Positions 15,677 to 23,901 of a stretch of DNA of 64,000 nucleotides are shown here, in pieces; position 1 is the first letter of the stretch, and each line of letters begins with the position of its first letter. The notes beneath the pieces are model-generated. The model saw only the letters and a program-made list of their open reading frames with translations. It had not been told where the DNA came from and searched no databases. This DNA comes from Escherichia coli (GTDB lineage Bacteria > Pseudomonadota > Gammaproteobacteria > Enterobacterales > Enterobacteriaceae): the NCBI RefSeq assembly GCF_045037415.1, contig NZ_CP173438.1; one strand, given 5' to 3'. A program made the position numbers and the translations under genes.

Positions 15677-16123
15677 GCTTCACCTCCACAGAGGTCAGAC
15701 GCTAGATGCAAAAAAACGCAGGTGCATTTCTGCATCTGTGAAGGGAGAAGAGAGTTTGGATTGTGTGTGCGCATAAACGTCCCCGTTTAGCGCAGAAGTC
15801 ACCGGAGTTGTTCAGGCTCCGGTGATACAATTATGGCGAATTGATTATTCATAATCAAACAAGATAAGGTCTCAAACTTCATGCAAGCCAAGATTTATTT
15901 CTGACAGAATTATACAAAGAAGCTATTGGTCAGAATCTACTCGGACTGTAAAACATACGCATAACCTTAAGCTCTCACTTTAAGCATTGTTGAAATAATA
16001 GCCGTCAAGTACAACCTTAACCACGACTGGGATATTTCCCTGGCTACCACGAGTTGTACGGCTATTAAACTGCCGTTAAATTTAGTAAGAGAATTTCATC
16101 CGATAAGTCAAGGCATGTAAAAC

Positions 16124-17155
16124 ATGAAAATTAACAAGATATTATCATCTGCAACACTATTGTATGGTATGTCAATGGCCATGTCGGTCGGGAGTTGTGC
16201 AACACCTGTCCAGACTAATCTTCCTGGTTACACCCCGGGTGCAGATATCATTAGTGTTTCACCGACCAGAAACCAGGTCGATCTCATTGGTGATGTTGTT
16301 TATTCCCAGATAAAAGGAACTCGTTCTGTCAGACAGCTTCACATGTCAGTTCTTGTCCCGCGAACAAATGATTTAAAACCAGCCATTATTTATTATCCCG
16401 GCGGCGGATTCATGTCTTCTGAACATGACAAATTTATTGAAATGAGAATGGCTCTGGCAGAAGCTGGTTTTGTTGTGGCCGCTGTAGAATACAGAACAAT
16501 TCCTGATACATTTCCAGCACCAGTTGAGGATGGAAAAGCTGCAATACGTTACCTGAGAGAGCATGCCAGCAATTATGGGATTGATCCTCAAAGAATCGGA
16601 GTTCTGGGTGACTCTGCCGGTGGATGGCTTGCCCAGATGATGGGAACTACAAATGGTGACAAAACCTTTGATAAAGGTGACTTTCTTCAGCAATCCTCAG
16701 ATGTTCAGGCAGTTGCCACACTTTATGGGATTTCTGACTTGTTGAATATTGGCGAGGGGTTCCCTGAATCAGTGCAGGAGGTTCATCGCTCTCCTGCCGT
16801 AACCGAAGCCTTAATGATCAATGGCCCTGCATTCAGAAATTTTGCGGGAGCCCCCATCACAGCGTCAAAAGAAAAAGCGCTAAACGCCAGTCCAATCGGA
16901 CATATGAAAGGAGTAAAACCCCCATTTCTTATTATGCATGGTAGCAAAGACACTCTGGTTTCACCTGAGCAAAGCGCCAAACTATTCAGGATGTTGAAGA
17001 AGAACGGTGATAACGCTGAGTACGTGCTGGTAGAAGGGGCCGAGCATGGCGATAAGACATGGTATCAGCCAATTATTATAAACAGAGTCGTTGAGTGGTT
17101 TACTAAAAACCTGGGAGCGCCTATAAAAACAGCTCCCCAACAACAAAACCCGTAA
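16124..17155 (+). CDS. Alpha/beta-hydrolase esterase/lipase (HSL-type motifs), probable lipoprotein; C-terminus truncated by 4 codons by the IS66 insertion
   Basis: 343 aa; N-terminus MKINKILSSATLLYGMSMAMSVGSC (signal/lipobox-like); PGGGF oxyanion-hole motif; GDSAGG serine-hydrolase pentapeptide; stop codon supplied by the first bases of the IS; low-GC context. Confidence 0.8.
   Translation: MKINKILSSATLLYGMSMAMSVGSCATPVQTNLPGYTPGADIISVSPTRNQVDLIGDVVYSQIKGTRSVRQLHMSVLVPRTNDLKPAIIYYPGGGFMSSEHDKFIEMRMALAEAGFVVAAVEYRTIPDTFPAPVEDGKAAIRYLREHASNYGIDPQRIGVLGDSAGGWLAQMMGTTNGDKTFDKGDFLQQSSDVQAVATLYGISDLLNIGEGFPESVQEVHRSPAVTEALMINGPAFRNFAGAPITASKEKALNASPIGHMKGVKPPFLIMHGSKDTLVSPEQSAKLFRMLKKNGDNAEYVLVEGAEHGDKTWYQPIIINRVVEWFTKNLGAPIKTAPQQQNP
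17144..17151. repeat. 8-bp target-site duplication (left copy) of the IS66 element
   Basis: CAAAACCC immediately outside the left IR, identical to 19684..19691. Confidence 0.8.
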
Positions 17156-17181
17156 GCGTCAACGGAGCACCGTATTGACGC

Positions 17182-22700: not shown

Positions 22701-23652
22701 CTGCAACATTATCGCTGCTAAGCTGTTCAGCCAAGGAAACGCCCGGGCGATAATTAAACTCAACACCAAAGGTTGTATCGTGAGTGTTGCTCTGTCCTTG
22801 CTTATGCTGTGCAGAAAACTTAATCAGAGGAACTGGTGTATAAGAAATTCCCCCAGTAACTGCGTAAGGGTTTTCCTGCAGGTTATCGCTTCCAAATAAC
22901 CCGACATTTTTACCATAATATTTTTCAAACTGAATAGATGCCCCTAATTGCGGATAAGCAGGTAGCCATCCTTCAGCAGAAAAATCCCAGCCATTTGCAG
23001 GTCTTTCCAGATAATCATCAATATCACGACTGTTCTTCCAGTCAGATAGACCAAAATAGGTATTTACACCAAGCCTGAAATAATCCCTCCAGTACTCAAC
23101 CCCAAAACCTGCACGAGAGTGACTACGACTTAAATCGTAATCATAGAAAACATTCGCACCCAACATTGCGTTATCAGGAGTGAAATGACGAATCCCCAAA
23201 CCAATATTGGTCTGATTTCGGTCATCAGTACGATGTAGTGATGTCTGACTGAATAACACATAATCCTGAGTATCCAGCCATGGATATAAAAAGTCGAATG
23301 ATGAATCCTTCAAGGAAAAAGAATCATCGACATTAAGCTTGATGCGCGCATTGCCATATTGTTGCAACCAGTCGACGACCTCTTTTGTCGCCTGAGTTGA
23401 TAAAGTATTTACAGCAAAACTACTTGCATTATTATTCGCCAGGCTCTGACCTGCACTTGCTGCAAATGAGGCCACTTTATTTGCATGCTCATCGCTGGCA
23501 TAAATTTGCGTAACATCTTTATTACCAGATGATGCAAAACTGTTTGCTGGGATCAAAGAAAGAGAAACTGGAGATAATATCTGGGTAACAATTACCGACC
23601 ATGTAATCGCGCCAGATGCAGTTTTTTTTAACTTTTTATTCACAGTGGTCAT
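19744..23652 (-). CDS. Intimin/invasin-family inverse autotransporter adhesin with multiple bacterial Ig-like (Big) domains
   Basis: 1302 aa; signal-peptide-like N-terminus; region ...LYPWLDTQDYVLFSQTSLHRTDDRNQTNIGLGIRHF...GFGVEYWRDYFRLGVNTYFG...ERPANGWDFSAEGWLPAYPQLGASIQFEKYYG...YDFVERNNNIVLEYKKK closely parallels the recalled intimin beta-barrel domain; then a long Thr/Ser/Val-rich repetitive passenger; AT-rich upstream region. Confidence 0.85.
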   Translation of the reverse strand: MTTVNKKLKKTASGAITWSVIVTQILSPVSLSLIPANSFASSGNKDVTQIYASDEHANKVASFAASAGQSLANNNASSFAVNTLSTQATKEVVDWLQQYGNARIKLNVDDSFSLKDSSFDFLYPWLDTQDYVLFSQTSLHRTDDRNQTNIGLGIRHFTPDNAMLGANVFYDYDLSRSHSRAGFGVEYWRDYFRLGVNTYFGLSDWKNSRDIDDYLERPANGWDFSAEGWLPAYPQLGASIQFEKYYGKNVGLFGSDNLQENPYAVTGGISYTPVPLIKFSAQHKQGQSNTHDTTFGVEFNYRPGVSLAEQLSSDNVAVMREVQNRRYDFVERNNNIVLEYKKKHALKISLPESVQGEGESIIPVTLTINNASGGIKSVQWNDSAFTAAGGKISGNGTSWQITLPAYKSEGVNSWNVGATVQDNRGNVSNYAVMNISVTDSGVSTADSSFTLDGDSSPTISADSQSTYPIVLSLKDSNGKALTGLADDIEMSVEFTADSNSARQRETVTAPSLGAVEEISAGVYRSVLTAGSQAGTVRVTAKVQGKTFTLNIKQAAITDSDVSTADSSFTLDGDSSPTISADSQSTYPIVLSLKDSNGKALTGLADDIEMSVEFTADSNSARQRETVTAPSLGAVEEISAGVYRSVLAAGSQAGTVRVTAKVQGKTFTLSIKQTATTEPDSEVSAVLTAAPAEQVVGYNINLQLAVKDSQGNAITGDNTLSFYALNQAEGVEFGTVTEKDGVYSATVTSKRAGKITIGVKSDSHDFSGVKKEITFIEDRQQVTFSQFEASQNNALADGKQRNMVTVSLADRFGNVVPGYAVTLSLPAGITQVGGEHAVSTDENGNAIFALISSTPGSYVITAHAGSQMSTELTVTFASNMTGASLSLTPESSSLISNIPANGKDAAVLDVQLTNTNASVNGQKIQLITSSEGLSVPTNIVTDSTGHVSVPLTTVKAGEYTVTARVTDGSHSVESGSVKLTFVPDVASAELNMSVSKQEIVADGSENATVNIQLVDANNNAFTGEVDLTITPSTGASLTSSNLQLDAHGQATTQFTASKSGQYTIQAEYVLDGKRITASQNIDAVTDVKGAVLEITSSASSAVVSDTNNLVFTLLLKSKSGEALSGRALNVKTSGPSKYGALVVDKTTVTTDENGQATVSVHGRTVGSYKLTATLNELGSDVSAVKSFSLYADDANGVLTLTKDPGYETNDGSPVGIYARFVDHFGNPLSGTVEFSAGSEDSPDSQRVKMEPATVTLHWTGNAASEFSTYESGYHWIKAKITNSKNTYEKTIRTYVVKLPEKDS
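21628..22350. repeat. Near-perfect tandem direct duplication (2 x 357 bp) inside the adhesin gene, encoding a duplicated 119-aa Ig-like domain
   Basis: gcttaatactgagagtaaatgtttttccctgaacttttgcagttacacg... recurs 357 bp later with a few substitutions; protein shows two almost identical blocks (...STADSSFTLDGDSSPTISADSQSTYPIVLSLKDSNGKALTGLADDIEMSVEFTADSNSARQRETVTAPSLGAVEEISAGVYRSVL...); plus-strand shadow ORFs 21904..22119 and 22261..22446 translate identically. Confidence 0.9.
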
Positions 23653-23901
23653 AGTTCAATCAACGTTATGAATATAATGAAAAAAATAACTGGTATGACA
23701 AGAGGCGCGAAATATACAGCTCGTTACAAAAAAATCAACTCAAAAATAAAATAAAATCTCTGCATAAACTTTATGGCTAAATGATTTCACAACAATGGAA
23801 GAAAAATTTTGTTGCTCACGCAATCAATCATTTCGGGCGTTACAACTAGTCCTAGATTATATTCGCTAGGTATACTTTATTTTTAAGCTAATACTTTAGC
23901 T

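Follow-up and report, generated by a model that had tools for sequence, protein, structure and literature searches.

Two probable moron cassettes, for an FdeC-like inverse autotransporter and a predicted exported esterase, in a lambda-like prophage of Escherichia coli ST131

The stretch of DNA analyzed here (the window) comprises 64,000 nucleotides of one strand of Escherichia coli DNA (NCBI RefSeq assembly GCF_045037415.1, contig NZ_CP173438.1). It includes part of a lambda-like prophage, an element that sits at icd in the pandemic E. coli sequence type 131 (ST131); the locus of interest was compared with E. coli O25b:H4-ST131 chromosomes and is 100% identical to them over 9.5 kb. Between the replication gene P and ybcN/ninB, this prophage carries 8.2 kb of DNA with a lower content of guanine plus cytosine (GC) that hold the gene of an inverse autotransporter (IAT), a convergent esterase gene, a terminator shared by both and the insertion sequence (IS) ISEc23. 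The comparison of related loci makes it likely that this slot received two moron cassettes independently, one coding for an adhesin and the other for an esterase, and that these came to lie tail to tail before ISEc23 split them. Both products would be expected to act at the cell envelope and to serve the lysogen.

Cassette structure of the cargo slot

The IS-free sequence was rebuilt and compared with five other loci for homology breakpoints. In the isolated phage 4A7, homology runs from ybcN through the esterase to position 19711, gives way to that phage's own terminator and to ybcK-emrE-ren, and is recovered at 23912, which falls inside the end of P. In strain 144 (locus L005), homology stops at 15818, the esterase is missing, and the alignment resumes at 19705 to take in the terminator, the complete IAT gene and P. 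These breakpoints divide the island into two distinct cassettes that adjoin at the terminator: one with the esterase, measuring about 1.35 kb when the IS is discounted (15819 to about 19704), and one with the IAT, measuring about 4.2 kb (about 19705-23911). Strain 144 has the IAT alone between P and ybcN. The esterase is found in the isolated lambdoid phages 4A7, 4C10, D2, 1W, 3W, Perceval and PhiR47_2, and in 4A7, 4C10, D2 and Perceval, as well as in chromosomes, it stands without the IAT beside ybcK-emrE-ren.

The distribution of both genes was counted in 5426 complete E. coli genomes. The 5' region of the IAT gene is present in 557 of them and the esterase in 675; the intact tail-to-tail junction was found in 436 genomes, and some 60-90 more have the junction split as it is here. 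By sampling and subtraction, approximately 165-170 genomes carry only the esterase and 45-60 only the IAT. The prophages that carry the pair differ in their immunity, Q and integrase modules (loci L006, L007 and L013), a pattern to be expected from linkage between conserved, recombination-prone flanks, and which thus offers no evidence of co-function. The earlier note, made by a model from the sequence of the window alone, had proposed that the esterase and the IAT form a functional module. The synteny check speaks against it, since the breakpoints, the single-cassette loci and the genome counts all separate the two genes. Nor is the pair rare or unannotated: besides the 436 intact junctions, both proteins have generic names in RefSeq and both are represented in PHROGs.

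The island is compositionally foreign, and the comparison with the flanking lambda genes agrees with the AT-richness and unusual codon style noticed before. Without the IS it has 43.3% GC, versus 48-50% in the flanks, and the GC content of third codon positions is 0.387 in the esterase and 0.355 in the IAT, versus 0.46-0.63 for Q, rusA, ybcN, P and O. The 249 bp that separate P from the IAT gene and form its leader (23653..23901, minus strand) have 30.1% GC. Foreign composition is thus found together with a position between conserved phage genes and with a presence/absence polymorphism, as befits morons. The P-ninB slot is a general accessory-gene hot spot of lambdoid phages. The statement that it holds only ren is right for lambda itself but not for lambdoid phages at large, in which the slot is well populated (ren, emrE, ybcK, PD-lambda-1, Rha, an acyltransferase, a lipoprotein). 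One lambdoid version of the slot pairs an acyltransferase with an outer-membrane lipoprotein and another pairs emrE with ybcK.

The cassettes resemble the envelope morons of lambdoid phages (bor/iss, lom and Eib) in being foreign accessory envelope genes inserted between conserved phage genes, and the esterase, like bor/iss, runs against the phage operon in which it lies. Autotransporter adhesins carried by prophages also have a precedent in the Eib trimeric autotransporters of strain ECOR-9. The differences lie in the slot (P-ninB) and in the protein families, the present adhesin being of type Ve and neither of type Vc nor OmpX-like.

The two cassettes share a bidirectional intrinsic terminator, a hairpin of the form GGGAGGGC-TAA-GCCCTCCC (19712..19732) that belongs to the IAT cassette, folds at -18.1 kcal/mol and was scored as a terminator on both strands. 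Once the IS is removed, 10 bp separate the esterase stop codon from this hairpin, and the IAT stop codon is just past it, in agreement with the terminator that the earlier note had reconstructed in the same way. ISEc23 (IS66 family; 17152..19683, minus strand, 2532 bp) has its tnpA, tnpB and tnpC open reading frames (ORFs) at 17182-19598. Its junctions can be read directly from the sequence: it starts with GTAAGCG, ends with CGCTTAC and is flanked by an 8-bp target-site duplication, CAAAACCC (left copy 17144..17151, right copy 19684-19691). Relatives free of this element (loci L004 and L006) have an uninterrupted esterase/terminator junction. The convergent pair is therefore split by an IS, as had been claimed, but the IS lies in the esterase gene and not between the genes: the last four esterase codons have been replaced and the stop codon is supplied by the IS, so that an ancestral protein of 347 residues ending in ...QQQNPNANL has become one of 343 residues ending in ...QQQNP. 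ISEc23 is a later insertion that is present in only part of the ST131 population. In strain 2015C-4136CT1, a second and independent IS66-family element is found inside the 3' end of the IAT gene (locus L004, 6254-8760). Two IS66-family insertions thus fall within about 300 bp near the esterase/IAT terminator, which may be a local hot spot for IS insertion.

The inverse autotransporter

The IAT gene (19744..23652, minus strand), which has the same orientation as the phage early-right operon, encodes a type Ve protein of 1302 residues. Its assignment to the intimin/invasin family, already made in the earlier note, is borne out by a match to Pfam IAT_beta (PF11924; 4.3e-101, model positions 3-279 of 279) and by solved structures: residues 97-341, the 12-stranded beta-barrel translocator (22630..23364, minus strand), align end to end with the barrels of invasin (4E1T, 8.6e-74) and intimin (4E1S, 5.9e-63). 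The barrel is preceded by a signal peptide (about residues 1-40, by eye, with a probable cleavage after SFA) and a short periplasmic linker, and it is followed by a passenger made up of a D00-like domain (residues 342-441) and at least seven Big_1/Invasin_D3 matches (residues 444-1175). The domain order is therefore inverted, with the signal peptide and barrel at the N-terminus and an immunoglobulin (Ig)-like passenger at the C-terminus, as is expected of an IAT. Within the passenger, intimin D00 (6TQD) is the match of the first domain and the invasin passenger (1CWV) that of later ones; neither a LysM domain nor a C-type lectin tip was found in the Pfam domain searches. A phage tail fibre or side tail fibre, the identity that would have contradicted this assignment, was ruled out by the domain evidence and the PHROG categories: there are no tail-fibre, collar or depolymerase Pfam matches, and the two PHROGs matched (phrog_7803 and phrog_16344) are both of "unknown function" and not tail.

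The protein stays under every curated NCBIfam equivalog cut-off tested (IatC, intimin, SinH/IatB, YchO/IatA, Ilp, YrIlm and Inv), the best score being 389.6 bits against a cut-off of 2400 for the N-terminal IatC model, followed by intimin (335/1400), SinH (318/999) and YchO (270/508). RefSeq calls it only "inverse autotransporter beta domain-containing protein". Its closest E. coli paralogue is fdeC (eaeH): the barrel regions share 66-67% of their nucleotides and the proteins 33% of their amino acids over 1228 residues, and a segment of the passenger matches the solved FdeC fragment 4E9L (8.5e-17). The two proteins also have in common a signal peptide, a short linker, a barrel without LysM, a long row of Big_1/Invasin_D3 domains and the lack of a C-type lectin. 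On these alignments, the prophage protein is taken to be a paralogue of the chromosomal adhesin FdeC. It was not accepted as an FdeC orthologue, given the 33% identity over 1228 residues and the separate locus: fdeC occupies a conserved chromosomal position between aldo/keto-reductase genes, whereas the IAT lies in a prophage slot, has an orphan tip and a copy-number repeat of 119 residues of its own, and is not named FdeC in RefSeq. The likeness to intimin and invasin is seen in the barrel, which aligns end to end, and in the passenger domains that match D00 and 1CWV; as differences, the prophage IAT has neither LysM nor lectin domain, shows no link to Tir or to the locus of enterocyte effacement, and with 335 bits remains far under the NCBIfam intimin cut-off of 1400. 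Goh et al. 2019 (PMC6714894) list six IATs of E. coli by name besides intimin, and in the accessible text the prophage protein is not one of them.

Some E. fergusonii and Salmonella plasmids (77-95 kb) encode an IAT that is 44% identical to the present one over the N-terminal 450 residues, and certain plasmids of E. coli and E. albertii carry fdeC-like genes. Since IATs are found on plasmids as well as prophages, they move on several kinds of mobile element.

The length of the passenger varies among strains. In the window, a 357-bp unit coding for an Ig-like domain of 119 residues is tandemly duplicated (two copies, 21638..22343, minus strand), and other strains have 0, 1, 3 or 4 copies, corresponding to proteins of 1064, about 1183, 1421 and 1540 residues; the one-copy form of about 1183 residues was deduced from an IS-disrupted, frameshifted gene at locus L004. 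Three copies are found in most ST131 genomes among the matches listed. The variable number of repeats implies that the length of the rod is polymorphic. One allele (P0241), first taken for a divergent version of the tip with 61% identity, was rejected as such, as it is the same IAT with both repeat copies deleted. The distal tip domain (residues 1195-1302; 19747..20070, minus strand) has only a marginal Big_1 match (E = 1.2), and a search of 1.84 billion representative proteins returned no homologues of these roughly 100 residues outside the IAT and its fragments, too few for a useful alignment. The putative receptor-binding tip is thus a sequence orphan.

Among alleles separated by dS of about 0.2, the ratio of nonsynonymous to synonymous substitution rates (dN/dS) for the whole IAT is 0.15; the barrel has 0.06 and the tip 0.10, and no segment exceeds 0.23. 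The 3.9-kb frame is uninterrupted in almost all of the 557 genomes. The overall ratio indicates that the gene is kept under purifying selection rather than decaying; the values show no sign of strong diversifying selection.

If the protein behaves as other members of its family, it would be exported by Sec, its N-terminal 12-stranded barrel would be inserted with the assistance of BAM, and the passenger would be threaded through the barrel as a hairpin to form a surface rod of about ten Ig-like domains, the length of which would be set by 0-4 copies of the 119-residue repeat. The clade-specific tip would then mediate adhesion or biofilm formation, activities that are described for FdeC, YeeJ, IatB, IatC and IatD in the accessible text of the same study (PMC6714894). 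As for expression, the leader is a candidate for holding both the gene's own promoter and a target of H-NS, and two sigma-70-like sites can be recognized in it (23738..23711 and 23701..23674). Silencing by H-NS is known for FdeC and iatB. The 30% GC of the leader makes such silencing likely for the IAT too, and the orientation of the gene along pR transcription would allow read-through expression after induction; the IAT is probably subject to one of these regimes or to both.

The esterase

The esterase gene (16124..17155, plus strand) is antisense to the phage early-right operon and is preceded by the upstream part of its cassette (15819..16123, plus strand), which begins at the left breakpoint 15818/15819. 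Its product, 343 residues long in the window, belongs to the BD-FAE/Abhydrolase_3 (CE10-like) esterases (Pfam BD-FAE 7.9e-45, Abhydrolase_3 1.5e-22) and matches phrog_3341 ("esterase"). As with the IAT, the Pfam matches lie well outside what chance would give. The best solved relative is 6NKF, a metagenomic lipolytic enzyme (1.6e-37), and further ones are the carbohydrate/acetyl-xylan esterases 6MLY, 6XYC and 6TKX. The oxyanion motif PGGGF (residue 92), the nucleophile elbow GDSAGG (residue 162) and the triad Ser164/Asp276/His308 align with 6NKF and are conserved in homologues, as in the feruloyl and acetyl esterases of the BD-FAE/CE10 type. The intact triad, the family profiles and a lipobox-like VGSC thus uphold the view of the earlier note that the smaller ORF codes for an exported alpha/beta-hydrolase esterase. 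Between alleles separated by dS of up to 0.2, dN/dS ranges from 0.18 to 0.30, and the catalytic triad and lipobox are conserved among the E. coli phage and prophage alleles.

The N-terminus reads MKINK...MSMAMSVGS-C25-A, in which VGSC fits a lipobox by eye, with Ala at position +2. Cys25 is present in all five E. coli phage and prophage alleles examined, for which reason it was not considered a one-off mutation in spite of the Tyr found in one cluster representative. The lipobox-like pattern suggests that the esterase is an outer-membrane lipoprotein. The homologues of Dickeya, Pantoea and Rhizobium have plain signal peptides that lack the lipobox Cys, which suggests that a secreted enzyme became membrane-anchored after its capture by phages.

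The closest relatives outside E. coli (64-75% identity) are chromosomal and come mainly from plant-associated Enterobacterales; the genera concerned are Dickeya, Pectobacterium, Pantoea, Kosakonia, Enterobacter, Klebsiella, Kluyvera and Rhizobium/Agrobacterium. The CE10 feruloyl esterases FaeD and FaeT have been described in Dickeya, the former as a substrate of the Out type II secretion system (PMC9007343, PMC10319131). The Dickeya homologues of the prophage esterase, which may or may not correspond to FaeD or FaeT, are 66-70% identical to it, and the one of Dickeya aquatica is labelled "ferulate esterase" in UniRef; the E. coli prophage alleles differ from these plant-associated homologues in their lipobox Cys. 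Another comparison is offered by NanS-p, the prophage-encoded 9-O-acetyl-sialic-acid esterases of Shiga toxin (Stx) and ST131 prophages, such as 933Wp42 and EC958_1546 (PMC5425062). In both cases a carbohydrate-type esterase is E. coli prophage cargo, for which a nutritional or mucus-related role is plausible. Nevertheless, fold and family are unrelated, the Pfam match list of the present esterase includes no NanS-type domain, and the slot is the nin region instead of the position downstream of stx/Q-S occupied by NanS-p.

The enzyme is thus pictured as a Sec-exported and probably lipidated serine esterase, BD-FAE/CE10-like, whose most likely action, in the periplasm or at the outer membrane, would be to strip carbohydrates of acetyl- or feruloyl-type esters. 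Its antisense orientation, like that of iss/bor, would fit expression in the lysogen, but this is only an analogy.

Alternative readings and prophage context

Several observations weigh against the preferred reading, in which the slot holds two independently acquired moron cassettes for an adhesin and an esterase. The IAT was found in none of 50,697 phage genome records, nor was any credible IAT barrel, and it is thus known from prophages only. Of the elements with which a moron would drive its own transcription, the terminator is present, but the sigma-70-like sites upstream of the IAT are no commoner than in shuffled sequence and no sigma-70 consensus promoter lies upstream of the esterase on its strand; the AT-rich upstream regions with which the earlier note had credited both genes are real, any promoters within them being hypothetical. 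The ribosome-binding site at the IAT start codon is weak, and a single-sequence AlphaFold2 model of the last 218 residues, with a predicted local distance difference test score (pLDDT) of 35.7, is unusable. On the side of the esterase, the neighbourhood of the D. zeae homologue, a possible orthologue of FaeD/FaeT, includes no adjacent dedicated regulator, and the ISEc23 allele, ending in ...QQQNP, has lost the C-terminal A-[N/D/S/R]-L tail that is family-wide in the homologues of E. coli, Dickeya, Pantoea and Rhizobium.

Several other scenarios may explain the locus. One is that the esterase and the IAT co-operate as a colonization or surface-modification module whose linkage is maintained by selection, the esterase trimming acyl groups from glycans and thereby exposing or creating the ligand of the adhesin, or unmasking the adhesin itself. 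Both are predicted envelope proteins, their pairing is the commonest arrangement (the 436 intact and 60-90 or so IS-split junctions, relative to 557 IAT-positive genomes), and it recurs across prophages whose immunity, Q and integrase modules differ (L006, L007, L013). Yet each cassette also occupies the P-ninB slot alone, the breakpoints fall exactly between the two genes, their co-occurrence is explained by linkage between the P and ybcN flanks together with the clonal over-representation of ST131, and a successful ST131 sublineage tolerates an IS that separates the genes and clips the esterase. We therefore regard a selected module as unlikely. A further elaboration would make the IAT and a possibly lipidated, FaeD-like esterase overlooked colonization factors of extraintestinal pathogenic E. 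coli such as ST131, spread by phages, with the esterase helping the adhesin to reach its ligand. In that case, the esterase may derive from plant-associated Enterobacterales and, now anchored to the membrane, act on esters of dietary fibre or mucin. If this rather doubtful proposal were true, the IAT would represent an eighth, phage-mobile class for E. coli and the locus a new kind of lysogenic conversion.

Alternatively, both genes could be silent and effectively neutral hitch-hikers in a decaying prophage. The ISEc23 of the present allele, the independent IS66-family insertion in the IAT of strain 2015C-4136CT1, the side-tail-fibre pseudogenes, an AT-rich leader suggestive of silencing and the failure to detect promoters would all be congruent with decay. 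Nevertheless, this is improbable in view of the dN/dS values (0.06-0.23 across the parts of the IAT and 0.18-0.30 in the esterase, with dS up to 0.2), of the IAT frame that is intact in nearly all of the 557 genomes and of the conserved triad and lipobox. It has also to be considered that one or both genes serve the phage, through superinfection exclusion or receptor masking or, as the IAT could be co-transcribed with the early-right operon, in the lytic cycle. The same slot holds exclusion or defence genes (ren, PD-lambda-1) in other lambdoid phages, and the IAT is oriented along pR transcription. However, the IAT has the architecture of adhesins to host cells or of biofilms, without tail-fibre or depolymerase domains, neither protein matched any PADLOC family, so that an anti-phage defence system was discarded, and the PHROG annotations are "unknown function" and "esterase"; a role in the service of the phage thus appears very unlikely. 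The preferred reading of two independent cassettes for an adhesin and an esterase remains the likely one.

None of the kinds of element involved is new: an adhesin of type Ve, an esterase of the CE10-like sort, and prophage morons in a slot already known to be variable. The locus leaves the general view of prophage cargo unchanged. The two proteins themselves are annotated only generically in RefSeq, and no functional study or description of either was found in the limited literature searched (on IATs, prophages and ST131). Neither is mentioned in the accessible parts of the ST131/EC958 genome papers or of the E. coli IAT census, and the prophage IAT is missing from that part of the census and from virulence-gene inventories as far as these could be consulted. 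Should the IAT be expressed, a phage-mobile FdeC-like adhesin would be carried by roughly a tenth of sequenced E. coli, among them most of the multidrug-resistant ST131. FdeC and SinH have been explored as vaccine antigens, a precedent that, along with the abundance of the prophage IAT and the purifying selection on it, makes this protein a reasonable candidate for tests of adhesion and antigenicity. The esterase is a smaller curiosity, a member of a family of plant-cell-wall-type esterases that appears as a predicted lipoprotein in phages of gut E. coli. On the practical side, the clear anatomy of the locus, with its cassettes, IS and repeat polymorphism, should facilitate clean genetic tests.

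The slot is bounded on its left by P (23902..24603, minus strand), in which homology to other lambdoid phages returns at about 23912, and on its right by ybcN/ninB (15221..15676, minus strand) and the conserved 102-nucleotide ORF beside it (15673-15774). The early-right operon is on the minus strand. The order of the prophage genes is a cI-like repressor, a cro-like gene, a YdaT-domain gene, O and P, then the cargo island, and after it the 102-nucleotide ORF, ybcN/ninB, ninE, ybcO, rusA, ylcG and Q. A scan for structured RNAs across 15000-24800 gave no Rfam family at its gathering score. Beyond Q are found holin, lysozyme, Rz, iss on the opposite strand, terminase and lambda-type head and tail genes. 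The prophage integrase adjoins icd (at about 31761-34267 of the window), with the attachment site within the 3' end of icd; an icd remnant lies about 50 kb away, which gives the whole icd-to-icd' element a length of about 50 kb. At the far end of the prophage, past the start of the window (locus L011, 9526-15669), the sitABCD iron/manganese transporter genes precede the icd remnant, and at the same locus the side-tail-fibre genes appear in the annotation as fragments of pseudogenes. The iss gene (11713-12006, plus strand), a bor homologue that encodes the increased-serum-survival lipoprotein, is antisense to the lysis genes, and downstream of it is a small ORF with a TonB_C domain (10906-11232, minus strand). 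The rest of the window (34300-64000) is core chromosome, including rluE, mnmA, purB, phoPQ, potABCD, cobB, lolCDE, mfd and ndh.

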